A stretch of DNA of 64,000 bases from Methanomassiliicoccaceae archaeon (GCA_040776945.1 JAXGZN010000002.1:928001-992000); one strand, 5' to 3'; shown: positions 408 through 51,256, counted from the first letter of the stretch. Notes: generated by a model not told the origin, from the sequence alone. Numbers and translations are program-made.

Positions 408-1295
408 ATGAAGGATAGGACCATCTTCGTCACCGGCGCTACCGGGCGCCAGGGAAGCGCTGCCACCAGGCACCTGCTGGAGGCGGGCTTCAAGGTCAGG
501 GCCCTTACCCGTGATCCTGGGTCCTCGCGCGGGGAGATGCTGAGAGGTCTCGGGGCAGAGCTGGTGGAGGGCGACCTTGATGATCCTGAAGCTGTGCGCA
601 GCGCTCTGCGCGGATGCTATGGGATCTTCGCCGTCCTTACTTGGACCGAGGAGGGCCCGACAGGAGAGACGAGACAGGGACGGACCCTTGCCGACGCGGC
701 CGAGGCCGAGGGCGTTCAGCACTTCCTCTACAGCTCGGTGGGCGGCGCGGACCAAAGGACCGGGATTCCCCATTTCGAGAGCAAGGCCGCTAATGAGCGC
801 TATATGAAAAGGGTCGGACTTCCGCTCAGCGTGCTTAGGCCAGTATACTTTATGGAGAACTTCAACGCGCCGACCGCGCGCCGCATGATATCCGAAGGCA
901 ATCTGGTCATGGCATTGGACCCCGGAAAACGGCTGCAGATGATATCGGTCGAGGACGTCGGGTTTATGGCCGCCATCATCCTGGACAACCCTGAGGATTG
1001 GATAGGGCGAACGATCGAGATCGCCGGTGATTCGCTGACCATGCCTCAGGCGGCGGAGCGGTTCTCTGTTGTTGCCGGCCGGGCGGTGTTCTTCCGCGAG
1101 CGGCCGCTTCAGGACCTTAAGCGCATCGATAACGAGCGCTATCTGATGATGAAGTGGTTGAACGAGCGCGGTTACGATGCCGACATCGAGGCCGTGCGGA
1201 AGATACATCCTTCTCTCATGGACCTAGAGCAATGGCTGTCCAAAGGCTATTGGAGGACCGAGCCGACGAAGGTCGTTCCCATGCGCACGGCCTGA
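408..1295 (+). CDS. NmrA/HSCARG family NAD(P)-binding protein
   Basis: VTGATGRQG Rossmann motif; PHFESK; LRPVYFMEN. Confidence 0.9.
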   Translation: MKDRTIFVTGATGRQGSAATRHLLEAGFKVRALTRDPGSSRGEMLRGLGAELVEGDLDDPEAVRSALRGCYGIFAVLTWTEEGPTGETRQGRTLADAAEAEGVQHFLYSSVGGADQRTGIPHFESKAANERYMKRVGLPLSVLRPVYFMENFNAPTARRMISEGNLVMALDPGKRLQMISVEDVGFMAAIILDNPEDWIGRTIEIAGDSLTMPQAAERFSVVAGRAVFFRERPLQDLKRIDNERYLMMKWLNERGYDADIEAVRKIHPSLMDLEQWLSKGYWRTEPTKVVPMRTA

Positions 1296-2498: not shown

Positions 2499-3284
2499 CT
2501 TCTTTTTCCCGCCATGTATTAAGTTTAGGTATAAACTTCCTTCCATCCGCCTTCGCCACTGGTTAGGCGGTTGTTGTTGGTGCCCGGTCATCGTTCGTCG
2601 CTAGGGGACCAATGCCTTCAGTGACCATATGGGCCTATCGGCGGACAATGTCCTATCTAAAGGGCATGAACATGAATCAACGTTACGCAGCCCGGTCCAA
2701 CGTTCCCTGTGGGACCACCATCTCCCGAAGGGTCATGCCGTTTCGATGCCGGGCTCTCCGAGGGACATCAGAGCGGACCAGGGCATGGAGGGGTAGAACG
2801 GGGACCTGTCTGGGACGACCTTGCCCGACAGTGCTCGCCCGGGAACTGGATGCTTGTTTGCCTTCCCATGCCTGTGATGCCTTTCTCAGCAAGCGGTCTT
2901 CGGAGGGTTCCCTCCGGCACGAGCGTGTGATGGCCTCGCTGCTCCCGCCGACCAGCGTCTTGGTCATTATGGGGGCCCCTGAGTTAGGCCCATCCCCCTC
3001 ATGGCCATCTTAGGAACGGGGGGAATGCCCTTTATGGTCCTTCTCTTGAACGATCGCAACGGCATGGGCCGGTGTCCTCGCTGCCGGACGGGGCTTCTTC
3101 CCGTTCGAGCGCATTGTTGGGTTACGATGCGTCCGACACGAGGACATGAAGGAATCTCCAACCAGATAATAATAAGCTTATGGATGGCGCCGTTCCGGGT
3201 CTTGAACCTCGTTCGGCTAAGGAAGGTGCCGCCCTGAGCGGTATTTCGAAAAAGGTTAATTACTTCCATGCCTACACATCGAAC

Positions 3285-5204
3285 GTGTCCCAGGTCCGGC
3301 TTGGAAGGATCCCTCTGAGATGGTGCGATGCTTGCAATCTCCCAATCCTAGACCTGAAGAGGTGCGGGCGCTGCGGCGAGGGGACCCGGCAGATGGAAAT
3401 AACCCCTCCGGGGGACGCTCGCCCGGCCATGGACTACGATGTCGGGCTGGCTCGGGAGATCATTGACCGGCAGTTCGGGTCCGGATGTGGGGAGGCCGTG
3501 CTCAAAGAGGGCCACTTCGTCCTTATGAACAAGGCGCCCGGGCTCGACCGCATGGATGAGGTGATCGTCGACGGCAATGTCGCCGGAACGCTTCGATATG
3601 ACCTCGGCCGAGGGTGGGTGTTCCTGGCCCGGATGCCTGCGGCGAGGGCCATGCAAAGGACCGCTGTCCGCGGGACCATCATGGCCGACGATGGCGCGCT
3701 TAGGCCGATATTGGACGGATCGAACCTGCTCGCTCCCGGCGTTGCCGGCTGCAGCGACGGCATCATGCCGGGGGACGAGGTCATCATCGTTGACAAGCAG
3801 GGAAGAGCTTTCGCCGCAGGATCGTCGAGGATGTCCTCAGCGGAGATGGCGGCCAGGGGCAAGGGAATGGCCGTCAAGGTGCGGTGGCACGAGCCCCCTC
3901 GAGATGATGCCGTCATGAGGGGCAGAGCAGGGTGGCCTGAGGTCTTGGAGGCCAACAGGCCAGAGATGGAGCGAAAGGTCGACGAAGCGGTCAGGTTCAT
4001 GCAGCGCGTTATGCGTGAGCATGATCTGCCGGCGGCGGTCTCCTTCTCCGGAGGGAAGGACTCCCTGGCGACCTTTCTCTTGAGCAAAAGGACAGGGGGA
4101 AAGCTCCCGTTGTTCTACATCGACACCGGCCTGGAGTTCCCGGAAACGGTACGGCATGTACGCGAGGTTGCGGAGCGCCACGGGACCGAACTTATCATGG
4201 AGGAGGCGCCTAGCGAGGCGTTCAGCGAGGGGCTGAAGGTGTTCGGACCTCCTGGAAGGGACTACAGATGGTGCTGCAAGACCAACAAGCTGGGACCGAC
4301 CGTTAGAGCGATCTCCAAGCATTTTCCCAGGGGGGTTCTGTCGTTCATCGGCCAGCGTCGGTATGAGTCCGAATCGCGAGCGTCAAAGCCGAGGGTCTGG
4401 GAGAACCCCTGGACGCCGGGTCAGGTGGGCGCGTCCCCCATCCAGAACTGGACTGCGCTGCATGTCTGGCTCCTGATCATGGGTGATGGGGAGCCGTACA
4501 ACCCTTGGTACGACCGCGGTCTCGACCGCATCGGCTGCTTCATGTGCCCTGCATCGGACCTTGCCGAACTCAGGACCGTCGAGGAATCGTCGGAAGGATA
4601 CCGCGGCTGGTCCGCCATCCTTAGCGAACGGGCCTCTGAGCGCGGCCTTCCTCAGGAATGGATCGATTACGGTCTGTGGCGGTGGAAGGTCGTACCTAAT
4701 TCCATCCGGCAGGAGCTGGAAAGGGCCGGTGTCGAGGTCAGGCCCCAGCAGAACGTGGAGAGGCGAGGCGAAGGGAACCTGAGGCTGGTCCTACAAAAGG
4801 GCGTCTCTCCGTGCATCATGGGTTACTCGATAGAGGGCGCGTTCGATCGCCCTCTTGACCTTAAGCGGGTGGCTAACGTGCTGAACATGGTCGGAGGGAC
4901 GCACATGAACGAGGCGGAGGGCTGGGTCGACGTCGACGGGGTAACCGTCTTTGAGGAAGGTGCGCTCATCGCCAAGGGTCCGAACCCCGATGAACTGAAA
5001 GAAAAAGTAGAAAGGGTGCGGCGAACGGTGGTCAAGGCCGAGGAGTGCGTCGGTTGCGGCGTGTGCACCGGAAGATGCAGCGAGGGTGCACTTAGGCTAG
5101 AGCTCGGAAGGATCCACGTAGAGGTTGGTAAATGCATCCATTGCGGACGCTGCGTGGAGCCGTGTCCGGCCATCACCTTCGGTGACAACGCCTTTGATTT
5201 CTGA
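3285..5204 (+). CDS. PAPS-reductase-family PP-loop protein with N-terminal Zn ribbon, PUA domain and C-terminal 2x[4Fe-4S] ferredoxin
   Basis: CxxC..CxxC N-terminus; PUA-like LLAPGV..GDEV; SGGKDS; WCCKTNK; RIGCFMCP; two C-terminal CxxCxxCxxxC motifs; GTG start inferred. Confidence 0.85.
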   Translation: MSQVRLGRIPLRWCDACNLPILDLKRCGRCGEGTRQMEITPPGDARPAMDYDVGLAREIIDRQFGSGCGEAVLKEGHFVLMNKAPGLDRMDEVIVDGNVAGTLRYDLGRGWVFLARMPAARAMQRTAVRGTIMADDGALRPILDGSNLLAPGVAGCSDGIMPGDEVIIVDKQGRAFAAGSSRMSSAEMAARGKGMAVKVRWHEPPRDDAVMRGRAGWPEVLEANRPEMERKVDEAVRFMQRVMREHDLPAAVSFSGGKDSLATFLLSKRTGGKLPLFYIDTGLEFPETVRHVREVAERHGTELIMEEAPSEAFSEGLKVFGPPGRDYRWCCKTNKLGPTVRAISKHFPRGVLSFIGQRRYESESRASKPRVWENPWTPGQVGASPIQNWTALHVWLLIMGDGEPYNPWYDRGLDRIGCFMCPASDLAELRTVEESSEGYRGWSAILSERASERGLPQEWIDYGLWRWKVVPNSIRQELERAGVEVRPQQNVERRGEGNLRLVLQKGVSPCIMGYSIEGAFDRPLDLKRVANVLNMVGGTHMNEAEGWVDVDGVTVFEEGALIAKGPNPDELKEKVERVRRTVVKAEECVGCGVCTGRCSEGALRLELGRIHVEVGKCIHCGRCVEPCPAITFGDNAFDF

Positions 5205-6654: not shown

Positions 6655-7779
6655 TCAGCGTCCGATGGTCAGGGCCGGGGCAGGTACAACATGAACACTG
6701 GCCGCTTTCTCAATGTCCTTGAATCCATAGAGATACGCTCCCTCTGCGGTGACCGGTAGGAGCGTTGATGCGAGCAGTATGCACCTAAGATTTATCATGT
6801 ACATCGTGGCGAGTGCCCCAGCATCCCTTTCTACGGCCCTCTTCCTGAGCGCGACCCCATATCCGTGCAGATATCCGTCGATGTACTCGTGAAGAATGAT
6901 GACGGCCTTTGATGGGTCGCCTCCCCTCGCGAGATTGTCGACCGCCCCGGCCACCCCTCGCAGCGTGGATATCTCCTCACGGTCCTGTTCCGAGAGCAGT
7001 CCATCATCCAACTCTGGCCGTGAGCTTATGTTGTCCTTGATCTCCTGGGCAAGAGTCCGCAGGCCTTGGCGAAGCTTCGCTTCCTGGGTCCTTTCCTCGA
7101 TGATGTCCCTGGCCTCATCGAAACTGCGGGCCCTCGTCGCCCTCATGGCCTTGCGAAGAGGTTCTTCCAGCGTGCCGCTGTAGACGCCCATCCTGGAAAG
7201 GTCAGGGGCCATCTTCAGGAGGTCGGACAGATAGTCCTTCAACTGTTCCGAGCTTCGGTACCTGTGCTTGGCTTGGTCAAGACAGAAGCCAATGTCCTTG
7301 ATCGAAGCCATGACCTCTCCGTCCATGAAGGTCTCCTTGGATATCTCGGCCAGAGACACTATGTCCTCCATGGGGATGTCCTTGCGCTGGGACATGGCCA
7401 CGACGAGCATGGTCTGCTCGAACAAGGAAGCGTAAACCACAGCATGCGGACCTACTAGGTCGCCAAGGAAGGTCTGCACCGCCTTGCGGACGTTGCGGCT
7501 GGGATGCACCATCTGTTCCAGAATGGCCGAAAGGGCGTTCCTGTCCTTGGCCAGCTCTGTCAATGTATCCAGTATGGACCTCTTCGCCCGGCCGTTCCTG
7601 CTTTCCAGGTTCCTTAGGAGTAGGACCACCGTCTCCTGGGGCTTGGTCTCTGCCCTTTTCAATAGTTTCCTTCTCACCCTATCAGCGTCCGATCCCTGGT
7701 CGGAAGCAAAGGAGTCGAGCATGCTAGCCTCAAGTCGTTCCTCTTCGTACTTCTTTCCGAAAATACCAATGAACGACAT
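6655..7779 (-). CDS. Hypothetical alpha-helical protein with N-terminal HEAT-like repeats
   Basis: 375-aa ORF with HEAT-like segments (LEQMVHPSRNVRKAVQTFLG). Confidence 0.65.
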   Translation of the reverse strand: MSFIGIFGKKYEEERLEASMLDSFASDQGSDADRVRRKLLKRAETKPQETVVLLLRNLESRNGRAKRSILDTLTELAKDRNALSAILEQMVHPSRNVRKAVQTFLGDLVGPHAVVYASLFEQTMLVVAMSQRKDIPMEDIVSLAEISKETFMDGEVMASIKDIGFCLDQAKHRYRSSEQLKDYLSDLLKMAPDLSRMGVYSGTLEEPLRKAMRATRARSFDEARDIIEERTQEAKLRQGLRTLAQEIKDNISSRPELDDGLLSEQDREEISTLRGVAGAVDNLARGGDPSKAVIILHEYIDGYLHGYGVALRKRAVERDAGALATMYMINLRCILLASTLLPVTAEGAYLYGFKDIEKAASVHVVPAPALTIGR

Positions 7780-8004
7780 CGGCCGCACCGTTGGGCTTTG
7801 GAACGGGACGTGTTGTACAAATAGATTGGCTTCCAGATATTTATTTCTGCAAGACTGCAACGGCCGTGGAAGCGGTCACGCGGGGACGAGATCTAGTTAT
7901 TGGGCCTTCATCCAGTATCGCTGGATGATGCGGTGGGAAATATTTTTATGAAAACCTATATATGGCCGCGGCTCATTAGGCGAAAAATCGGAACGAGGAA
8001 AACC

Positions 8005-11293: not shown

Positions 11294-11789
11294 TATATCG
11301 GCCAGTGGATTGTGGAGGAAGGATTTAAGCATTGATGGGCACTGGTCAACGACCGGGCCGGCAAGGATTGGCGGTTGCCAGGTCCTTCGATATGCCCTGG
11401 ACAATGGTGTCCGATATCATGACAGATAGTCCCATCGGCCCGCACCTTAGTGAAAGGCCAGGAAGTTGATGTAAGAAGCGATATCCCACAAATGTCCCGG
11501 CAAATCGCACCGGCCCTCCGGACCGCCATGCCTTCTTTCTAATGACCGAACGTTATATCGCCGTGCCGCTATCGGACCATTGCCGGAAGGTCCCTGACCG
11601 GCTGACATCCATGCGTTCCGAGCGTATGCAACGCGCTGCTGCGGCACTTGCGGGGGCCGCCTCACCTCCATGACGTGGCATATCGAAGGGAGCGGCCTTT
11701 CAGGGGCTTGTTCACATCGACCGGAGGGACCTGATCTAAAAAGGAGATGATAATCATCTTTTTATCAGAGAGTCAGTATTGCGAAATCC

Positions 11790-13562
11790 ATGCGCATAGC
11801 CGTACTGCTGAGGGACCACTGCCAGCCTAAGAAGTGCAACGCTGAGTGCAGGAGCTACTGCCCTAAGGTGCGCACCGGCGTGGAGGCGGTGGTCATCGGA
11901 GAGGGCGGGAAGCCGGTGATCTCCGAGGAGCTGTGCGCAGGATGCGGCATCTGCGTGCACAAATGTCCGTTCGAGGCCATCAAGATCATTGGCCTGCCAG
12001 AGGAGCTGAAGTCCGATCTTATGCACCAGTACGGGCTCAACGGGTTCCGGATCTACCGCCTCCCTGTGCCGAAACGCGGCCTCGTGACCGGCATTCTTGG
12101 TCCCAACGGGATCGGCAAGACGACCTCGATAAGATTGCTGTCCGGGGAGGAGACCCCCAACTTCGGAAGCTATGAGAGTCCGCCGAGCAGGGAGGAAGTG
12201 CTTTCCAGGCTCTCCGGAACAGAACTGGGCGACTACTTGGCTAAAGTGTATGCCGGAAACGTGCGGACGGCGCTCAAGCCGCAATACGTGGACAAGCTTC
12301 CAAGGGTGGTCAAGGGAGTGGTGAGGGAACTGCTGTCGAAGGTCGCGGAGCGCATGACCGTAGACCAGGCCGCAGAGCTATTGGAGCTGGAGGAGATCAT
12401 CGACCGGCCACTGGACAAGCTGTCAGGGGGCGAGCTGCAGCGGGTTGCCATTGCCGCCTCTCTGATGAAGGATGCCGACACCTACTTCTTCGATGAGCCG
12501 TCCTCATATCTGGACATCTACCAGCGCATCAGGGTGGCGCGGCTCATCCAGCAGCTAGCCCAAGAGAAGCAGGTAGTGGTCATAGAGCATGACCTGGCCA
12601 TCCTTGATTTCCTCGCGGACAACGCCTACCTGGTCTATGGCTCGGAGGGCGCGTACGGCGTGTTCGCTCAACCGCGCCAGGTGCGCATCGCCATCAACAC
12701 CTACCTGGACGGATACATGCGGGAGGAGAACATCCGCTTCCGGGACACCCAGATACGGTTCGAGTCGCATCCCCCGCGGGACAGCCAGGTCACGGCGCAC
12801 CTGCTTGACTACCCTCGCCTGGAGTGCGACTTCAAGGAGTTCAAGCTTTCCGCGGAGCCGGGCACCATCAAGGTCGGCGAATCGGTCGGCGTGGTGGGCC
12901 CCAATGCCATCGGGAAGACGACTTTCGTCAAGATGCTGGCCGGCATTCAGGAGCCGACCGCGGGGAAGGTGGACAAGAGCGTCAAGGTTTCGTACAAGCC
13001 CCAGTACATCGCCCCGGACTTCGACGGCTCGGTCATGGAGCTTTTCATGGTGACGAATCACGAGTTCTTCCGGTCCGGCTTCTTCGAGAGCGAGATCGCG
13101 CACCCTCTGATGCTGAAAAGGCTCTACGAGAAGAACGTCAACACCTTGTCCGGGGGCGAGCTTCAGAGGGTAGCGATCGCCATCTGCCTGTCACGAGAGG
13201 CCGACATGTATCTGCTGGACGAGCCGTCGGCATACCTGGACTCGAACCAGAGGATGGAGGCGGCCAAGACCGTTCGCAGGGTCATGGAGAAGCGGGGCCG
13301 CAGTGCACTCATCGTCGACCACGACATATACTTCCTGGACATGGTCTCCGACTCCATCATGGTCTTCTCCGGGCAGCCGGGGAAGGAAGGTCGTGCCAAC
13401 GGGCCGTTCGACATGCGGATAGGGATGAACAAGTTCCTCAGAGAGGTCGACGTGACCTTCCGCCGCGACAATGATACCAACCGGCCTCGGATCAACAAGC
13501 CTGGCTCGCGGCTCGACCGCGAGCAAAAGGAGAGGGGCGAATACTACTACTCTGATGCCTAG
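11790..13562 (+). CDS. rli: Ribosome recycling ATPase ABCE1/RLI
   Basis: N-terminal Fe-S cysteines; two ABC cassettes (GPNGIGKT, LSGGELQR); C-terminal GEYYY. Confidence 0.97.
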   Translation: MRIAVLLRDHCQPKKCNAECRSYCPKVRTGVEAVVIGEGGKPVISEELCAGCGICVHKCPFEAIKIIGLPEELKSDLMHQYGLNGFRIYRLPVPKRGLVTGILGPNGIGKTTSIRLLSGEETPNFGSYESPPSREEVLSRLSGTELGDYLAKVYAGNVRTALKPQYVDKLPRVVKGVVRELLSKVAERMTVDQAAELLELEEIIDRPLDKLSGGELQRVAIAASLMKDADTYFFDEPSSYLDIYQRIRVARLIQQLAQEKQVVVIEHDLAILDFLADNAYLVYGSEGAYGVFAQPRQVRIAINTYLDGYMREENIRFRDTQIRFESHPPRDSQVTAHLLDYPRLECDFKEFKLSAEPGTIKVGESVGVVGPNAIGKTTFVKMLAGIQEPTAGKVDKSVKVSYKPQYIAPDFDGSVMELFMVTNHEFFRSGFFESEIAHPLMLKRLYEKNVNTLSGGELQRVAIAICLSREADMYLLDEPSAYLDSNQRMEAAKTVRRVMEKRGRSALIVDHDIYFLDMVSDSIMVFSGQPGKEGRANGPFDMRIGMNKFLREVDVTFRRDNDTNRPRINKPGSRLDREQKERGEYYYSDA

Positions 13563-14641: not shown

Positions 14642-15904
14642 CTAAGCCGGGGCCTTGGCTCCGTTGCCCGCCTTGGCCTTGGCCTTGGCCTTCGCCGGGG
14701 CCTTCACGCCCGCGGCCTTTAGGAGGGCGTCGACCTTGTCGACCTTCTCCCATGTGAACTCCGGCTCGTTGCGCCCGAAGTGACCATAGGCGGATGTCTT
14801 TGAATAGATCGGCCGGCGGAGATTAAGGGCACCCATGATCCCATCGGGAGAGAGGTCGAAGACCTTCACCACGGCCTGGGAGATCTTCTCCTCGGGAACG
14901 ATCGCGGTCCCGCCGGTGTCCACCATGACCGACACCGGCTGCACGACGCCGATGGCGTAGGCGAGTTGTACCTCGACCCTCTTGGCCAGCCCAGCGGCGA
15001 CGATGTTCTTTGCAATATATCTGCACATGTAGGCGGCCGAGCGGTCAACCTTGGTGGGGTCCTTTCCCGAGAACGCGCCGCCTCCATGACGGCCCATGCC
15101 TCCGTACGTATCTACGATTATCTTGCGCCCAGTCACGCCGGAGTCCCCGCAGGGGCCGCCGATGACGAACCTTCCAGTGGGGTTGATGAAGTACTTGGTC
15201 TTGGCATCTATCCATTTCCCGCACACCGGCTTGATGACCTTGTCCTTCATGGCCTTCTCGATGATGGCGTGGACCTTCTCGTCCTCGGTCTCACCGTCGA
15301 TGACCGGCGCGTGCTGGGTGGACACGACCACGGTGTCGATGCGCTTAGGGACCCCGTCCTCGTATTCGACCGTTACCTGTGTCTTGCCGTCCGGCCTGAG
15401 CCATGGGAGCGTTCCGTCCTTCCGTACCTTGGCCAGCTGCATCGCCAGCTTTTGGGCCATGAGTATGGGGAGCGGCATGAGCTCAGGGGTCTCGTCGGTC
15501 GCGTACCCGAACATCAGGCCTTGGTCGCCTGCGCCGGTGGCCAGTTTCTTCCCCTTCTTCTTGCGGCATACGCCCATAGCGATGTCCGCGGACTGATCGT
15601 GCAACGAGGATAGGACGCAGATATGGTCGGAATCGAAGCCATACTCGGGGCGGTCATAGCCGATCTCCCGCACCGCCTTGCGTATCACCTTGTCTGCGTC
15701 CACATGCACGTTCAAGCAAGGGTCGGTCTTCACCTCGCCGGCCACGATGACCATGCCCGTGGTCGCCATGGTCTCGATCGCGATGTGCGCGTTGGGGTCC
15801 TGTGCCAGATATGCGTCTAGGATAGAGTCGGAGATACGGTCGCAAAGCTTGTCGGGGTGACCTTCGGTCACGGACTCCGATGTGAATACGTGGGTTACCA
15901 TCAT
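14642..15904 (-). CDS. metK: S-adenosylmethionine synthetase, bacterial/eukaryotic type
   Basis: [33 protein letters not shown]; Ala/Lys-rich tail. Confidence 0.96.
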
Positions 15905-15969
15905 GACCACTTCTTGAGGCTAAAACACGGGAGGGTATATATATTTTAACGCATCATACCATGCATAGA

Positions 15970-22466: not shown

Positions 22467-22642
22467 CTTATGCTCCGAATAGGTCCGAACGGCCCCTAAT
22501 CCTGTAAAGCTATCGGCGCTCACATGATCTAATGTTCTTTGGTCCACATGGTTGACCTTATGATCATATGTGGAGCGCCGATGGCCGCTGTGGAACAGAT
22601 AGTTAGTGGATGTAAAGGAGCTGTAAGGCCAGAAAAGGAAAG

Positions 22643-22717
22643 CGCACACGGAGGGATTCGAACCCTCGGCTTGCAGCTTAGGAGGCTGCCGCCATATCCA
22701 GGCTAGGCCACGTGTGC
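22643..22717 (-). tRNA. tRNA-Arg(CCT)
   Basis: Acceptor GCACACG/CGTGTGC; anticodon arm GCAGC-CTCCTAA-GCTGC; GGTTCGAATCC; CCA not encoded. Confidence 0.95.
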
Positions 22718-23543: not shown

Positions 23544-23735
23544 GAAATCACCTGAAATCTAATGGCTGAATATGGAATGGTGTCATTAATTCGTTATTTT
23601 TATACTTTGTGGTTTTCTGCGTTCCCAGGAACGCTTCCCGAGGCGTCCCTGTGGTCTTCGCTTGCCACATCTGGAAGCATGGACCCTGTTCCTCTCGCAA
23701 CCTATTATATGGGAGAGCATTATTTGAGGTCTCAG

Positions 23736-23809
23736 GCCACCATAGCCTAGCCCGGTAGAGCGGCTGACTTGTAATCAGCAGGTCGCGTGTTCAAATCACG
23801 CTGGTGGCT
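23736..23809 (+). tRNA. tRNA-Thr(TGT)
   Basis: Acceptor GCCACCA/TGGTGGC; anticodon arm GCTGA-CTTGTAA-TCAGC; T arm GCGTG-TTCAAAT-CACGC. Confidence 0.93.
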
Positions 23810-23826
23810 TCCCATATGTGGCGATC

Positions 23827-49281: not shown

Positions 49282-49417
49282 GGGAATCGCCTCGAGAAGC
49301 CCGGGATAAAGCAATGCGTCTAGCGCTCACGCAAAAACAACGCCGCAGTGGCGGCAGTGACGCAGCTCTCCCGAGGATCGTTCACGGTAAGAGCATAAAA
49401 GAACGGGTGATAATAAA
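49282..49417 (-). promoter_or_regulatory. leuA promoter and structured 5' leader (attenuator-like)
   Basis: TTTATTAT at 49417-49410; nested stems; alternative pairing that covers the RBS. Confidence 0.5.
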
Positions 49418-49892
49418 TCCTTCCTTGGTTCTGAGAACGCCCCTGATCCATATGAGCGGTGACCGAGTTGATGGTCGCGTATGATGGCTCGAAGTACAGA
49501 GCGATGATGCAGTCTCCGCTGTCGAACGGCCCGGCGACCGATATGTTATCGCCGCTCTCCACCAGGCCGTCGTGGTCCCTGTCGACACGAGCGACCGTGA
49601 ACTCCCTGCCGTCCTCGAGGGCCAAGGTTGCGCCGCTTCATGTCAGGACCGCGTGAGCCCAGGAGTTCGTCCCGCTAACGGAGAGATATGCGGATACTGC
49701 GGAAGAGTCGGTGGGGTTGGAGATGTACAACGTGAGGTTCACGACGCCCTCCTTGCTTGTATCGACCGATCCAAAACTTGCTGCCGGCGCACATGACGGC
49801 GTCACTCCACGCGTCATAACTAGGAGAACGAGAACGGCGATCACGCCTATGGCCGCGATCGATGTCCCGACGATCGACCGCCGTGTCCTCAT
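49320..49892 (-). pseudogene. Secreted/pilin-like protein interrupted by an in-frame TGA
   Basis: ORFs 49638-49919 and 49320-49625 share one frame, separated by TGA at 49640-49638; N-terminal TM helix; DRDHDGLVESGD motif. Confidence 0.55.
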
Positions 49893-49937
49893 CGGCGTGA
49901 TATCGCCGTCGAAATGCAAATCAAAAGAGCTTGGAGC

Positions 49938-50567
49938 TCATTTCCCGCGCGCGTCGCCCCAGATCATTTTGTGCAGCTGAGGCATGACCCGCACCATCAG
50001 GCGGTCCGCCAGCACCCACTCCGCGAGGGGCTTGAGCACCGTGCCGCCCACCGGGGTGAATATCACCGGGGCGTTGATCTCGTGCTCCCTGAGCACCTTG
50101 CGGGAGAACAGGTAATCAACACGGTCGGCGATGACGAACTTGACCTGGTCCCGGGGAGCGAGGAACTCGAGATTTTCCATTAGGTTCCTGTCGGACATCC
50201 CGGAGCTGGGGCACTTGACGTCCATGGAGATCATGACCTCCTCGGAGTCGGGGATCGACTCGAGAGGCATCGAGCCGTTGGTCTCCACGGTCACGTGGTA
50301 CTCGTTGTCCACGAGAAGCGAGATGAGGCGATGGATGTCCTCCTGCAGCAGGGGCTCCCCGCCGGTGACGCCGACGAATGGCACGCCCTCCCTCTCTACC
50401 CGATCGAAGATCTGGTCGATCGTCATCTCCGTGCCGCCCTGCCTAGCGTACCTCGTGTCGCACCACGCGCAGTCCAGGTTGCATCCCACCGTTCGCACGA
50501 AGGTGGTGGGAGTCCCCATGAGCACTCCTTCGCCCTGGAGCGAGCAGAATATCTCGCTTATCCTCAT
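49938..50567 (-). CDS. queE: 7-carboxy-7-deazaguanine synthase (radical SAM)
   Basis: SLQGEG, CNLDCAWCDT, TGGEP, ETNG, PQLHK. Confidence 0.93.
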   Translation of the reverse strand: MRISEIFCSLQGEGVLMGTPTTFVRTVGCNLDCAWCDTRYARQGGTEMTIDQIFDRVEREGVPFVGVTGGEPLLQEDIHRLISLLVDNEYHVTVETNGSMPLESIPDSEEVMISMDVKCPSSGMSDRNLMENLEFLAPRDQVKFVIADRVDYLFSRKVLREHEINAPVIFTPVGGTVLKPLAEWVLADRLMVRVMPQLHKMIWGDARGK

Positions 50568-51256
50568 CTGGTCGCCTCGTACGGCACGGGGTCCTTCACG
50601 CCAGCCTCCCGGAAGCCCTTGAGGCGAAGGAGGCAGGAGTCGCACCGCCCGCAAGCCCTCTCGCCGCCCTGATAGCATGACCAGGTGAGGTGCAGCGGCG
50701 CCTTCAGCTTCATGGCGAGGGTGACGATCTCTCCCTTGGTCATGTCCAGTATCGGCGCCTCCACCCGGATCGGACGTCCTTCCACGCCTGCCTTTGTGCC
50801 GACGCGAAGTACATGCTGGAATGCTTCGAGGAACTCAGGGCGGCAGTCCGGATAGCCGGAGTAGTCCACGGCGTTGATCCCGATGAATATCGCCTCGGCG
50901 CCCACCGACTCGCACAGGCCGGCGGCGATGCTGAGCATGATGATGTTGCGCGCCGGAACGTAGGTCGCCGGGATCTCCTCCGAGACGTCCTCCAGGGACC
51001 TCCGCTTCGGAACGTCCACGGCATCGGAGATGAGCGCGCTGGTGTTGAGGAAGCTCAGGTCCAAATGGGTCATCACGTGCTTCTTGACCGAGTAGTGCGC
51101 GGCCACCGCTCTTGCGGACTCCAGCTCCCGGGAGTGCTTCTGCCCGTAGCTCATGGTGAGAGGCACGACCTCGTACCCCCTGGAAACGGCATATGCCAGT
51201 GTGGTCGTGGAGTCCAGTCCGCCGGAGAGCAGCACCACGGCCCTCTTCAATCCCAT
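50564..51256 (-). CDS. queC: 7-cyano-7-deazaguanine synthase
   Basis: SGGLDS, YVPARN, GYPDCRP, TWSCY..CGRCDSC. Confidence 0.96.
   Translation of the reverse strand: MGLKRAVVLLSGGLDSTTTLAYAVSRGYEVVPLTMSYGQKHSRELESARAVAAHYSVKKHVMTHLDLSFLNTSALISDAVDVPKRRSLEDVSEEIPATYVPARNIIMLSIAAGLCESVGAEAIFIGINAVDYSGYPDCRPEFLEAFQHVLRVGTKAGVEGRPIRVEAPILDMTKGEIVTLAMKLKAPLHLTWSCYQGGERACGRCDSCLLRLKGFREAGVKDPVPYEATR

Follow-up and report, generated by a model that had tools for sequence, protein, structure and literature searches.

The gene examined here lies in a window of 64,000 nucleotides from a Methanomassiliicoccaceae archaeon and encodes a multidomain protein whose features suggest, with a probability of about 0.5, a housekeeping enzyme that uses ATP and an Fe-S cluster to insert sulfur into tRNA or another RNA, rather than a reductase of sulfate assimilation. 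Under this reading tRNA would be the most likely target, and it has to be kept in mind that a PUA domain does not prove a tRNA substrate. The protein combines, in this order, a four-cysteine zinc ribbon, a pre-PUA/PUA module, a PAPS-reductase fold, a small alpha+beta domain and a 2x[4Fe-4S] ferredoxin. The zinc ribbon, the PUA-like domain, the SGGKDS motif, the CC and CxxC cysteines and the C-terminal ferredoxin that had been listed in the original prediction were all found and are all conserved, and these domain features are confirmed as real and beyond chance.

The open reading frame starts with GTG at position 3285 and ends at 5204 on the + strand, giving 639 amino acids plus the stop. The first ATG, at 3180 (ORF 3180-5204, + strand), would prepend 35 residues that are absent from every aligned homologue. 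Since the homologues begin with M-x-x-V/I-R-L-G, three residues ahead of the conserved VRLG, the GTG was retained as the start. A candidate TATA-box-like element, TTAATTA, lies about 26 nt upstream of it and would suggest a leaderless or short-leader archaeal transcript. The whole protein matches the equivalog model NF010368 of NCBIfam (PRK13795.1-3) with 627.9 bits against a cutoff of 588, residues 2-633 being aligned to profile positions 3-633 of 635. This model is labelled "hypothetical protein", while public sources name the protein "PAPS reductase family protein". AlphaFold2 yielded one confident model of the entire chain (mean pLDDT 93.3, pTM 0.92). When the full-length model was searched with Foldseek, matches were obtained domain by domain only and no protein of the same overall build was found. 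The features are collected in Table 1.

Table 1. Coordinates of the gene and of its features, counted from the first nucleotide of the window.
Feature	Position	Strand	Basis
Whole gene	3285..5204	+	ORF call, homologue starts, NCBIfam NF010368 match
TTAATTA, candidate TATA-box-like element	3256..3262	+	sequence reading, about 26 nt upstream of GTG
Four-Cys zinc ribbon (C14/C17/C27/C30)	3315..3383	+	motif positions, conservation
Pre-PUA (TGT_C2-like) and PUA, presumed module binding RNA or the tRNA acceptor end	3417..3884	+	Pfam, profiles, Foldseek
Catalytic domain of PAPS-reductase fold (adenine nucleotide alpha-hydrolase)	4035..4553	+	Pfam PF01507, Foldseek
PP-loop SGGKDS, canonical ATP pyrophosphatase signature	4047..4064	+	residues 255-260
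Cys330-Cys331 pair, presumed ligands of the catalytic [4Fe-4S] cluster	4272..4277	+	alignment with APS reductases, conservation
CFMC (Cys418-x-x-Cys421), presumed ligands of the same cluster as C330/C331	4536..4547	+	residues 418-421
Helical extension past the catalytic domain, with conserved W465-R466	4554..4769	+	alignment and AlphaFold2 model
Small alpha+beta domain (two strands, helix, four strands, helix)	4776..5045	+	structure models
Clostridial-type 2x[4Fe-4S] ferredoxin domain	5046..5177	+	Pfam, motifs, Foldseek

Conservation was assessed in an alignment (A1) of the query with 58 representatives, chosen among the 150 listed because each has a single full-length match. The zinc ribbon is formed by CDAC (residues 14-17) and CGRC (27-30; positions 3324-3374), and each of its cysteines occurs in 56-57 of 59 rows; all four are found in 119 of the 150 listed representatives. 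Behind it, Pfam PUA (PF01472) matches residues 130-200 with 63.5 bits (E 1.7e-17; gathering threshold 24.8) and TGT_C2 matches residues 56-106 weakly (E 0.01). The C-terminal part of the ArcS profile (positions 446-573) covers residues 56-200 with an E-value of 2.4e-11, and the model of the universal archaeal PUA protein, TIGR03684, is matched at 4.3e-12. In the same way, Foldseek matches the N-terminal module to PH0734.1 (3d79; E 1.5e-11, TMt 0.75), Ta1423 (1q7h), the ArcTGT-tRNA complex 1j2b, the Cbf5-type NSun6 (5zvd) and MCT-1 (3r90). In ArcTGT, NSun6 and MCT-1, a C2-PUA-type module holds the 3' CCA end of tRNA. Pfam, NCBIfam profiles and Foldseek assign the module to the tRNA-binding PUA type. 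The first 200 residues of the query resemble ArcTGT, ArcS and the MCT-1/Tma20-like proteins (PH0734.1, Ta1423) in both sequence and fold. On the contrary, what follows the module is different, for these proteins carry a transglycosylase domain, an amidotransferase domain or no catalytic domain, and none of them is fused to a PAPS-reductase fold.

The catalytic domain is recognized by Pfam PF01507 (PAPS_reduct) over residues 251-423 (E 1.9e-42), and Foldseek brings up APS reductase 2goy at 2.8e-9, along with CysD (1zun), FAD synthase (8rom) and TtuA (5b4f). In a phmmer search against the PDB, the CC and CxxC of the query fall on the corresponding cysteines of two APS reductases, 2goy and 7lhr. 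S255, G256, G257, S260, C330, C418, C421 and all eight ferredoxin cysteines are invariant (59/59 rows); C331 is kept in 57 of 59, and N, S or T stands in its place in nine of the 150 listed representatives. SGGKDS is intact in 145 of these 150 and the CC..CxxC set is complete in 135, the misses for both and for the zinc cysteines including fragments.

Downstream, residues 490-496 form a low-confidence linker in the AlphaFold2 model. A model of residues 424-639 (pLDDT 88.5) gave no Foldseek match in the PDB at E <= 0.001, and its best non-ferredoxin match was TBP (1ais; E 0.16). For the corresponding alpha/beta domain of BrxP, a Mog1p/PsbP-like assignment has been made (PMC12839542). The ferredoxin carries two CxxCxxCxxxC motifs at residues 588-598 and 617-627 (positions 5046-5165) within a Pfam 4Fe-4S dicluster match (582-629), and superposes on 2[4Fe-4S] ferredoxins with an rmsd of 1.4 A over 43 columns; 12 residues remain between its last cysteine and the C-terminus.

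That the protein is not a canonical APS/PAPS reductase is supported by four profile models falling far below their cutoffs, the lack of the C-terminal cysteine motif, an intact PP-loop and the lack of sulfate genes nearby. The CysH/APS-reductase models reached 65 bits against 154 (NF002537), 56.8 against 235.3 (TIGR02055), 48.9 against 165.1 (TIGR00434) and 33.2 against 254.2 (TIGR02057). The motif [ED]CG[LIVM]H was searched in the protein and was not found, and between the CxxC and the ferredoxin there is no conserved cysteine, the only one, C510, being kept in 34 of 59 rows; motif search and alignment thus agree with the earlier observation that ECGLH is missing. Two control CysH genes that adjoin sulfite reductase or sat genes end in ECGIH or ECGLH. 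At the same columns these controls have SFQAED or SFGIEG, H284, Q361 and S415, whereas the PUA-PAPS family to which the query belongs has SGGKDS, E284, E361 and R415, and BrxP and an SspD-like protein side with the family, not with CysH. The comparison of the predicted structure with the CysH-type fold, which had been put forward as a check, returned APS reductase 2goy as noted above. Assimilatory APS reductase (2goy, 7lhr) is alike in fold and in the alignment of its CC and CxxC cysteines, but it has a degenerate P-loop, a C-terminal ECGLH and sulfate-assimilation neighbours of its own, and has neither PUA nor ferredoxin. The name under which public sources carry the protein would then be the mis-annotation as a sulfate-pathway reductase that had been foreseen.

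By sequence comparison, residues 219-624 have BrxP and an SspD-like protein as their closest relatives of studied function. Among the PADLOC models, BrxP scores highest (7.6e-45, 151 bits), before SspD (8e-10) and DndC, which matches part of the domain only (31.2 bits, E 2.8e-8). With tblastn, residues 220-639 found matches of 96% query coverage in a BREX-4 locus of Methanosphaera and in an Ssp-like locus of Treponema. BLASTP against the Methanosphaera BrxP aligned residues 219-624 with BrxP 98-497 (E 6e-33), the alpha+beta region and the ferredoxin included. According to the published descriptions, brxP is required together with brxC for DNA phosphorothioation in Bacteroides (PMC12914056), BrxP, SspD and DndC need a partner NTPase (PMC12914056), and BrxP and some SspD proteins share the arrangement of PAPS-reductase, alpha/beta and Cys-rich ferredoxin-type domains (PMC12839542). 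The query and these two relatives have SGGKDS, R328-W329-C330, E361-S362, R415 and the CxxC in common, and align through the PAPS-reductase, alpha/beta and CxxCxxCxxxC regions with 25-28% identity over about 400 residues. Nevertheless, they differ around this core. BrxP has its own C-terminal DUF4007 part and BrxC, PglZ and BrxL as neighbours, none of which was seen in the query or among its scanned neighbours, and the Treponema SspD-like gene adjoins DUF4007, a 1201-aa protein and a class V aminotransferase. The query, in turn, has the N-terminal zinc ribbon and PUA, two full ferredoxin motifs and a CC pair where BrxP has C-T. DndC is likewise a PAPS-reductase-family PP-loop protein of DNA phosphorothioation, but its own cysteine dyad is described as absent from BrxP (PMC12839542), and no dndD or dndE lies near the query. 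The link to phosphorothioation appears, from these alignments, better founded than the original prediction knew, as it extends over the full core; of its DndC-type form, the kinship stands and the choice of relative does not, the closest match being BrxP. In a tree, all 31 sampled rows of the PUA-PAPS family form one clade (SH-aLRT 95) with BrxP and the SspD-like protein outside, and FastTree on 152 rows agrees (support 89), both trees carrying long-branch warnings and containing one BrxP and one SspD-like sequence only.

The genomic surroundings point to a housekeeping context. None of the window's 62 other ORFs matches a sulfate-assimilation, cysteine-desulfurase or phosphorothioation-partner family. 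Neighbours were further clustered from the ORFs of 80 loci and of the opening 16 kb of the window. The target ORF had been called in 77 of these sources, and 52 clusters recur within three genes of it; again, none of them is a sulfate-assimilation, cysteine-desulfurase or phosphorothioation-partner gene. The absence of sulfate-assimilation genes that had been noted for the immediate surroundings hence extends to the related loci. DUF4007, BrxC/SspC/DndD, dndE, PglZ and BrxL are also missing from the window and from the recurrent clusters, and neither set contains a gene for a sulfur donor or carrier linked to the target. Six of the 52 clusters are tRNA-related (MetRS, CysRS, Trm1, a THUMP methyltransferase, a TruA-type synthase and an Anticodon_1-domain protein); these six are confined to particular lineages and mostly lie on the other strand, and plain housekeeping synteny may account for them. 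Even the most widespread neighbour cluster is found in no more than 20 of the 77 sources, and no conserved partner gene emerged; synteny being lineage-specific, gene context therefore yields no partner. Riboflavin genes lie upstream in many Thermoplasmatota loci, and a riboflavin/FAD link was considered and rejected as synteny of that group.

A sulfur-inserting reaction on RNA could proceed as follows. By analogy with the C2-PUA of ArcTGT and ArcS and with MCT-1-type modules, the zinc ribbon, pre-PUA and PUA would dock the 3' acceptor end of the RNA. The intact PP-loop, as judged from its motif and superfamily, would then bind ATP and adenylate an oxygen of the RNA with release of PPi. A [4Fe-4S] cluster on C330, C331, C418 and C421 might deliver the sulfur and displace AMP, as proposed by analogy with BrxP/SspD/DndC and TtuA/TtcA, and the C-terminal ferredoxin may supply this cluster with low-potential electrons, for example to reduce a persulfide to sulfide. 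Within this reading the sulfur would more probably enter a base carbonyl, giving a thio-nucleoside, than a phosphate, although taken by itself the base carbonyl is less likely than not. TtuA, TtcA and NcsA are comparable in their proposed action, ATP-dependent adenylation of RNA beside a sulfur-carrying cluster, but they belong to a different PP-loop family, have their cysteines at other positions and are devoid of PUA and ferredoxin. Their family, Pfam ATP_bind_3, has no match in the query at E <= 0.1. The structural comparison with TtuA that had been proposed gave, in 5b4f, likeness at the level of the fold only (E 8.7e-8, TMt 0.44). TtuA-type thiolases hold their cluster with three ligands and have a free iron that carries sulfur, and the cluster of APS reductase is not known to be a sulfur donor. 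The catalytic cluster site of the query has four cysteines as in APS reductase and would therefore leave no obviously free iron. To our knowledge, the known archaeal tRNA thiolations are already assigned to ThiI, NcsA and TtuA, so that no orphan thio-modification is left. As for the RNA sulfur modification initially predicted, the departure from CysH, the tRNA-type PUA and the kinship to phosphorothioation enzymes hold, and the chemistry on RNA with sulfur is what we infer from them. Nowhere in the literature searched, which excludes subscription journals, is the PUA-PAPS family treated as an RNA enzyme, and no paper there tests it.

The current annotation could be right in substance, the protein being a ferredoxin-linked APS/PAPS reductase that makes sulfite for assimilation or another sulfur pathway; the fold and the APS-reductase-type CC...CxxC cluster site are indeed present, and the ferredoxin could stand in for thioredoxin as electron donor. 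APS and PAPS reductase activity of Methanocaldococcus jannaschii enzymes reportedly goes back to Lee 2011 and to the Cho 2013 thesis. Two papers cite this in-vitro activity for M. jannaschii homologues, whose closeness to the query is uncertain, and group archaeal homologues with extra Fe-S domains with them (PMC6286981, PMC10322725). These and the putative archaeal reductases of Yu et al. 2018 resemble the query in joining an archaeal PAPS-reductase fold to added Fe-S domains (PMC6286981); however, the M. jannaschii protein, compared by description only, is described with an N-terminal Fe-S domain and the description mentions no PUA. In addition, such homologues are reported to be widespread in methanogens, many of which have no sulfate-activation genes (PMC6286981), and M. 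infernus has them, yet its genetic potential is considered insufficient for growth on sulfate (PMC10322725). With all four reductase models far below cutoff, no conserved catalytic C-terminal cysteine, a PP-loop that is intact where real CysH is degenerate, a window and recurrent neighbours free of sat, cysC and sulfite-reductase genes, and a conserved tRNA-type PUA module that has no role in sulfate reduction, this reading is improbable. A component of DNA phosphorothioation or defence, orthologous to BrxP, SspD or DndC and acting on DNA, would account for the 151 bits of the BrxP model and for the shared core architecture. It is very improbable, as the neighbours scanned contain no DUF4007, BrxC/SspC/DndD, PglZ or BrxL, the gene sits amid housekeeping genes (FtsZ, MetRS, an aminotransferase) in synteny that is lineage-wide, and the family forms a clade of its own with a PUA module in place of DNA-handling partners. 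A flavin nucleotide enzyme resembling FMN adenylyltransferase deserves equally little credence. On its side are RibB, lumazine synthase and a RibL-like cytidylyltransferase, which lie upstream on the same strand in 20, 14 and 13 of the 77 loci, together with the Foldseek matches to the PAPS domain of human FAD synthase (8rom, TMt 0.74) and to FMNAT (3fwk). These genes are, however, two to nine genes away with an opposite-strand aminotransferase between, they are missing from Methanosarcinaceae loci, and the PUA module, Fe-S site and ferredoxin have no counterpart in FMNAT.

In a modification of RNA without sulfur, the PP-loop would adenylate an RNA base or a carboxylate, to be followed by a nitrogen nucleophile or a reductive step as in TilS or QueC, the Fe-S clusters being structural or supplying electrons. 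The PP-loop and PUA evidence fits this equally well, and a four-Cys-ligated cluster with a dedicated electron-transfer domain would serve redox chemistry no worse than the delivery of sulfur. It is nevertheless unlikely, because the best-scoring studied relatives, from the defence library and the plasmid search, insert sulfur, the functionally named models that score next (CysH, APS reductase, CysD) all act on activated sulfur, and the protein has neither a fused nor a linked amidotransferase or other donor domain. The sulfur insertion preferred here also includes, as a sub-case, phosphorothioation of the RNA backbone by an RNA-directed sibling of BrxP/SspD, which would adenylate a non-bridging oxygen of a phosphate in tRNA or rRNA and put sulfur in its place. 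The closest functionally studied relatives over the 400-residue core are DNA phosphorothioation enzymes; E284, R328-W329, E361 and R415 are common to them and to the PUA-PAPS family, and the alpha/beta and ferredoxin domains are shared with them only. Natural RNA phosphorothioate is itself contested. According to a review, it has been described and its enzymes have been elusive (PMC8341892). Against this sub-case, which seems rather unlikely, stand the separate clade of the family (subject to the long-branch warnings given above), the lack of a linked BrxC/SspC/DndD-type partner and the lack of any report of archaeal RNA phosphorothioate in the literature searched. The more far-reaching proposal that the family is the missing writer of natural RNA phosphorothioate, an archaea-wide housekeeping sibling of BrxP/SspD whose PUA holds tRNA or rRNA, is to be regarded as a long shot.

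If tRNA is indeed modified, the family would represent a new class of RNA-modification enzymes, and its product a modification so far unassigned or overlooked. Papers on the genomes and metagenomes of methanogens, ANME and hyperthermophiles routinely read the protein as a PAPS/APS reductase, and the sulfate-assimilation or sulfate-reduction capacity deduced from it is therefore inflated. For instance, a Pyrodictium genome paper interprets a 'PUA_PAPS' protein in this manner. The full-length core kinship with BrxP/SspD would link DNA phosphorothioation defence in evolution to a core enzyme of RNA-modification type, and might offer a partner-free model protein for sulfur insertion by the BrxP/SspD enzyme class. 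Were the family to write RNA phosphorothioate, the phosphorothioation enzymes of DNA defence and an RNA-modification enzyme would share a common ancestor.

At E <= 1e-30 the PUA-PAPS family counts 357 cluster representatives, and its genome loci number at least 514. Clusters listed by the Atlas for the homologue P0025 are 98-100% archaeal and all belong to the family itself, and the loci represent Thermoplasmatota, Methanosarcinaceae and Asgard lineages; a profile search with A1 added no named model organism. An intein was considered in the long variant P0125 (874 aa) and rejected, its inserts being low-complexity stretches. Relatives that lack the N-terminal module (14 of the 150 listed representatives) were likewise rejected as a separate architecture and are most likely truncated gene calls or fragments, because their tree neighbours are near-identical full-length proteins (P0209/P0142, P0237/P0149).

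The reading frame of the PUA-fused PAPS-reductase-fold protein extends upstream to an ATG at 3180, and starting there would add 35 residues that are absent from every aligned homologue. The five close homologues inspected begin with M-x-x-(V/I)-R-L-G, so that the start is placed at the GTG at 3285, as first proposed, giving a product of 639 aa. The database gene model (P0002, 591 aa) is 100% identical over 92% of the query, but its start at Met49 removes the conserved zinc ribbon (window 3285-3429). A TTAATTA element upstream of the GTG is a possible archaeal TATA box. All the features listed in the original prediction, namely the zinc ribbon, PUA domain, SGGKDS loop, CC and CxxC cysteines and 2x[4Fe-4S] ferredoxin, were recovered by Pfam and motif scans, and no ECGLH-like motif was detected in the protein by motif scan, again as first noted.

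Features of the gene and its product (residue numbers of the 639-aa protein), of a plasmid relative and of the tRNA genes in the window
Feature	Location	Strand	Source
Open reading frame from first ATG	3180-5204	+	
TTAATTA element	about 26 nt upstream of GTG 3285	+	sequence inspection
Zinc-ribbon cysteines	residues 14, 17, 27, 30	+	motif scan
TGT_C2 (weak)	residues 56-106	+	Pfam
PUA	residues 130-200	+	Pfam, E 1.7e-17
PAPS_reduct	residues 251-423	+	Pfam, E 1.9e-42
SGGKDS	residues 255-260	+	motif scan
CC pair	residues 330-331	+	motif scan
CxxC	residues 418-421	+	motif scan
4Fe-4S dicluster domain	residues 582-629	+	Pfam
CxxCxxCxxxC, two copies	residues 588-598, 617-627	+	motif scan
SspD-like ORF, 543 aa (Treponema saccharophilum plasmid pTS1, locus L081)	11659-13290	+	tblastn match
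tRNA Arg-CCT	22642-22717	-	ARAGORN
tRNA Thr-TGT	23735-23812	+	ARAGORN

When 1.84 billion cluster representatives were scanned in full, 3201 proteins passed E <= 1e-3 and 357 passed E <= 1e-30, with the full-length architecture persisting to about 28% identity. In the family alignment A1 (the query and 58 representatives picked from 150 listed for having a single full-length match), S255, G256, G257, S260, C330, C418, C421 and all eight ferredoxin cysteines are invariant in 59/59 rows, as are R328, R358, E361, S362 and W389; C331 is found in 57 rows and the zinc cysteines in 56-57. Among the 150 representatives listed, with fragments among the misses, SGGKDS is present in 145, CC..CxxC in 135, the complete set of four zinc cysteines in 119 and a pair of ferredoxin motifs in 114. 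Scanning one genome per species for the sequence pattern gave at least 514 confirmed loci out of 600 matched stretches, the best 80 belonging to Methanomassiliicoccales and other Thermoplasmatota, Methanosarcinaceae and Asgard lineages labelled Thor-, Borr- and Promethearchaeota. Atlas clusters around one stored homologue are 98-100% archaeal and carry automatic names such as "PUA-PAPS reductase like fusion" or, for one Thermoproteota cluster, "TgtA2". The protein also scores 627.9 bits against NCBIfam NF010368 (PRK13795.1-3; cutoff 588), an equivalog titled only "hypothetical protein". Both the family and the fusion are already catalogued, with no function assigned, and full-text searches of the main articles of non-subscription journals found no paper testing the family or suggesting an RNA role for it.

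Some members depart from this architecture. P0204 (733 aa) has a GTP-eEF1A C-terminal-like domain (E 5.3e-20) in place of the ferredoxin end, and P0247 (939 aa) carries an N-terminal extension of about 300 residues that weakly matches the DNA-primase small subunit (E 4.7e-5). In seven Thermoplasmatales-type loci (L066, L059, L072, L058, L067, L056 and L063) the post-catalytic region is 156-164 residues long vs about 215 in the window, so that the alpha+beta domain or its linker is shorter in that lineage.

AlphaFold2 with A1 gave a single confident model (mean pLDDT 93.3, pTM 0.92) that falls below 50 only at residues 490-496. Foldseek searches of the PDB gave matches to single domains, and none of the hits shared the overall build. 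The N-terminal 160-190 residues matched PH0734.1 (E 1.5e-11, TMt 0.75), then Ta1423, the ArcTGT-tRNA complex 1j2b, NSun6, MCT-1 and APE0525; in parallel, NCBIfam profiles aligned residues 56-200 with the C-terminal region of ArcS (profile positions 446-573) and residues 126-199 with TIGR03684, the universal archaeal PUA protein. In ArcTGT, NSun6 and MCT-1, a C2-PUA-type module grips the 3' CCA or acceptor end of tRNA, and by analogy tRNA is proposed as the substrate. The catalytic domain matched the APS reductase 2goy (E 2.8e-9) as well as PAPS reductases, CysD, human and yeast FAD synthase / FMN adenylyltransferase and TtuA. Residues 424-639, modelled separately (pLDDT 88.5), had no PDB match at E <= 0.001, and good superposition was limited to the ferredoxin part (rmsd 1.4 Å on clostridial ferredoxins).

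Relatives are publicly named "phosphoadenosine phosphosulfate reductase (family protein)". The CC and CxxC of the protein align with the cluster cysteines of the APS reductases 2goy and 7lhr, so that the active centre very likely includes a [4Fe-4S] site. APS or PAPS reductase activity in vitro is reportedly described for possibly related M. jannaschii enzymes by Lee 2011 and in the Cho 2013 thesis. Such activity, cited in PMC6286981 and PMC10322725, is the main evidence supporting the annotation. Nevertheless, the annotation was judged improbable on model scores, the missing C-terminal cysteine, residue differences and gene context. Scores with four CysH/APS-reductase models, whose cutoffs are 154-254, reach just 33-65 bits, and the sole cysteine between CxxC and the ferredoxin is present in just 34 of the 59 A1 rows. 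As controls, two annotated phosphoadenylyl-sulfate reductases were taken from plasmid records, one adjoining sulfite reductase and siroheme genes and the other sat; both terminate in ECGIH or ECGLH, a motif that the archaeal protein lacks. Where the family has SGGKDS, E284, R328-W329, E361 and R415, they have SFQAED/SFGIEG, H, no R-W, Q and S. No family of sulfate activation or sulfite reduction was matched by any of the window's 62 remaining ORFs or by the 52 neighbour clusters recurring within three genes of the target at 77 loci. The lack of sulfate-assimilation genes nearby is borne out, and the suspected mis-annotation is supported. Passages in Yu et al. 2018 (PMC6286981) and Jespersen et al. 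(PMC10322725) agree with this, the former describing homologues with extra Fe-S domains as widespread in methanogens, many without sulfate-activation genes, and the latter finding that in M. infernus, which has such homologues, gene content was not enough for growth on sulfate.

The closest functionally studied relatives are enzymes of DNA phosphorothioation. In a defence-system library the top match was BrxP (E 7.6e-45, 151 bits), with SspD (36.8 bits) and DndC (31 bits) a long way behind; the anticipated link to phosphorothioation enzymes is strengthened, DndC itself being a weak match. A tblastn search of plasmids with residues 220-639 hit 39 records, three at 96% query coverage, of which two are versions of one plasmid. 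The Methanosphaera plasmid match, 785 aa long, is named "PAPS reductase family protein", and after it come a 1186-aa protein, BREX-4 PglZ and BrxL. The Treponema match precedes DUF4007, a 1201-aa protein and a class V aminotransferase in an Ssp-like locus; the ORF is absent from the PLSDB gene table, which is known to be incomplete. By BLASTP, residues 219-624 align with residues 98-497 of the Methanosphaera BrxP (E 6e-33), spanning the PP-loop, R-W-C, CxxC, alpha/beta region and ferredoxin. According to a 2026 comparative study (PMC12839542), BrxP and a subset of SspD join the PAPS reductase to an additional alpha+beta domain and to a ferredoxin-type region rich in Cys, and lack the DndC cysteine dyad; this is exactly the arrangement of the core described here. 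A 2026 experimental study (PMC12914056) shows that DNA phosphorothioate synthesis in Bacteroides requires brxP with brxC. BrxP and SspD depend on DNA-handling partners, whereas the archaeal protein has a presumed RNA-docking module in that place.

Catalytic-core trees were rooted on the two CysH controls, using FastTree on 152 rows (158 minus 6 fragments) and IQ-TREE in quick mode with a mixture model on 36 rows (six named ones, plus one in four of 120 full-length representatives, taken at regular intervals). All family members form one clade in both (support 89 and SH-aLRT 95, respectively), with BrxP, the SspD-like protein and a Methanobacterium plasmid protein outside it, and these together split from CysH at 99. 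Since both trees carry long-branch warnings and include one BrxP and one SspD-like sequence only, a sister relationship is provisional; the safer statement from these sequences is that the family does not appear nested inside BrxP/SspD-like proteins.

Read from this anatomy, the protein is proposed, with moderate confidence, to be a self-contained nucleic-acid sulfur insertase, and every chemical step is inferred. The N-terminal module would dock RNA and the intact ATP-pyrophosphatase loop would adenylate an RNA oxygen at the expense of ATP. Sulfur bound to the cluster at the [4Fe-4S] reaction centre would then attack the adenylated position, with the ferredoxin domain supplying electrons as a two-cluster wire from the centre to the outside. 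C331 is N, S or T in 6 of 10 near-complete representatives without the C-terminal domains (P0200, P0213, P0224, P0227, P0232 and P0259) and in only 3 ferredoxin-bearing ones among the 150 listed, which hints that C331 and the ferredoxin domain may work together. Some representatives without the alpha/beta and ferredoxin part may be truncated contigs, and BrxP also reads C-T at the CC pair. Several points count against sulfur insertion: the four-Cys site resembles that of APS reductase, whereas TtuA-type enzymes carry sulfur on clusters with three Cys; the target has no linked gene for a sulfur donor; and, to our knowledge, the known archaeal thio-modifications all have enzymes already. RNA sulfur insertion as originally interpreted is compatible with all tests run and strengthened by the BrxP/SspD-like kinship, while unproven. 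As to the modified atom, a base is favoured by prior knowledge, thio-bases being well established in tRNA, and a phosphate oxygen by homology, the nearest relatives making phosphorothioates. Natural RNA phosphorothioate is described in a single report and has no enzyme assigned to it (PMC8341892). The boldest surviving reading, an archaeal RNA phosphorothioate writer, is rated improbable.

The window is archaeal housekeeping DNA (FtsZ, MetRS, ThrRS, SerRS, RLI/ABCE1, arginine biosynthesis, diphthamide synthase, RNase P subunit) with two tRNA genes only, as found by ARAGORN. Even the most widely shared neighbour occurs at 20 or fewer of the 77 loci. Of the 52 recurrent clusters, six are tRNA-related (MetRS, CysRS, Trm1, a THUMP methyltransferase, a TruA-type synthase and an Anticodon_1-domain protein) and were given little weight because they are lineage-specific and mostly on the opposite strand. 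The riboflavin genes that lie upstream in Thermoplasmatota were put down to probable synteny and rejected as a functional link. Two genes downstream of the target, a 401-aa protein (6655-7860, minus strand) without Pfam or NCBIfam match is kept in 10 Methanomassiliicoccales sources; one homologue (L017:4598-5740) has a weak match to Anticodon_1, the tRNA-ligase anticodon-binding domain (E 3.3e-6). A contig labelled as the bacterium Dialister hominis (CAVICI010000031.1, locus L028) bears a full-length copy of the gene at 48% identity with CysRS two genes downstream, matching Methanomethylophilaceae loci, and is probably mis-binned archaeal DNA.

Most archaea use a different MAT family, yet the otherwise archaeal window encodes a bacterial/eukaryotic-type S-adenosylmethionine synthetase (14642-15910, minus strand) with Pfam S-AdoMet_synt N, M and C domains and 553.9 bits against NCBIfam metK TIGR01034 (cutoff 309.4). 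Finally, a radical SAM protein (49938-50678, minus strand) is closest to QueE (7-carboxy-7-deazaguanine synthase), its 230.7 bits falling short of the cutoff of 300. Next to it are two small ORFs without assignment (49320-49625 and 49638-49919), and this locus, 45 kb from the target, may be part of the preQ0/archaeosine pathway.
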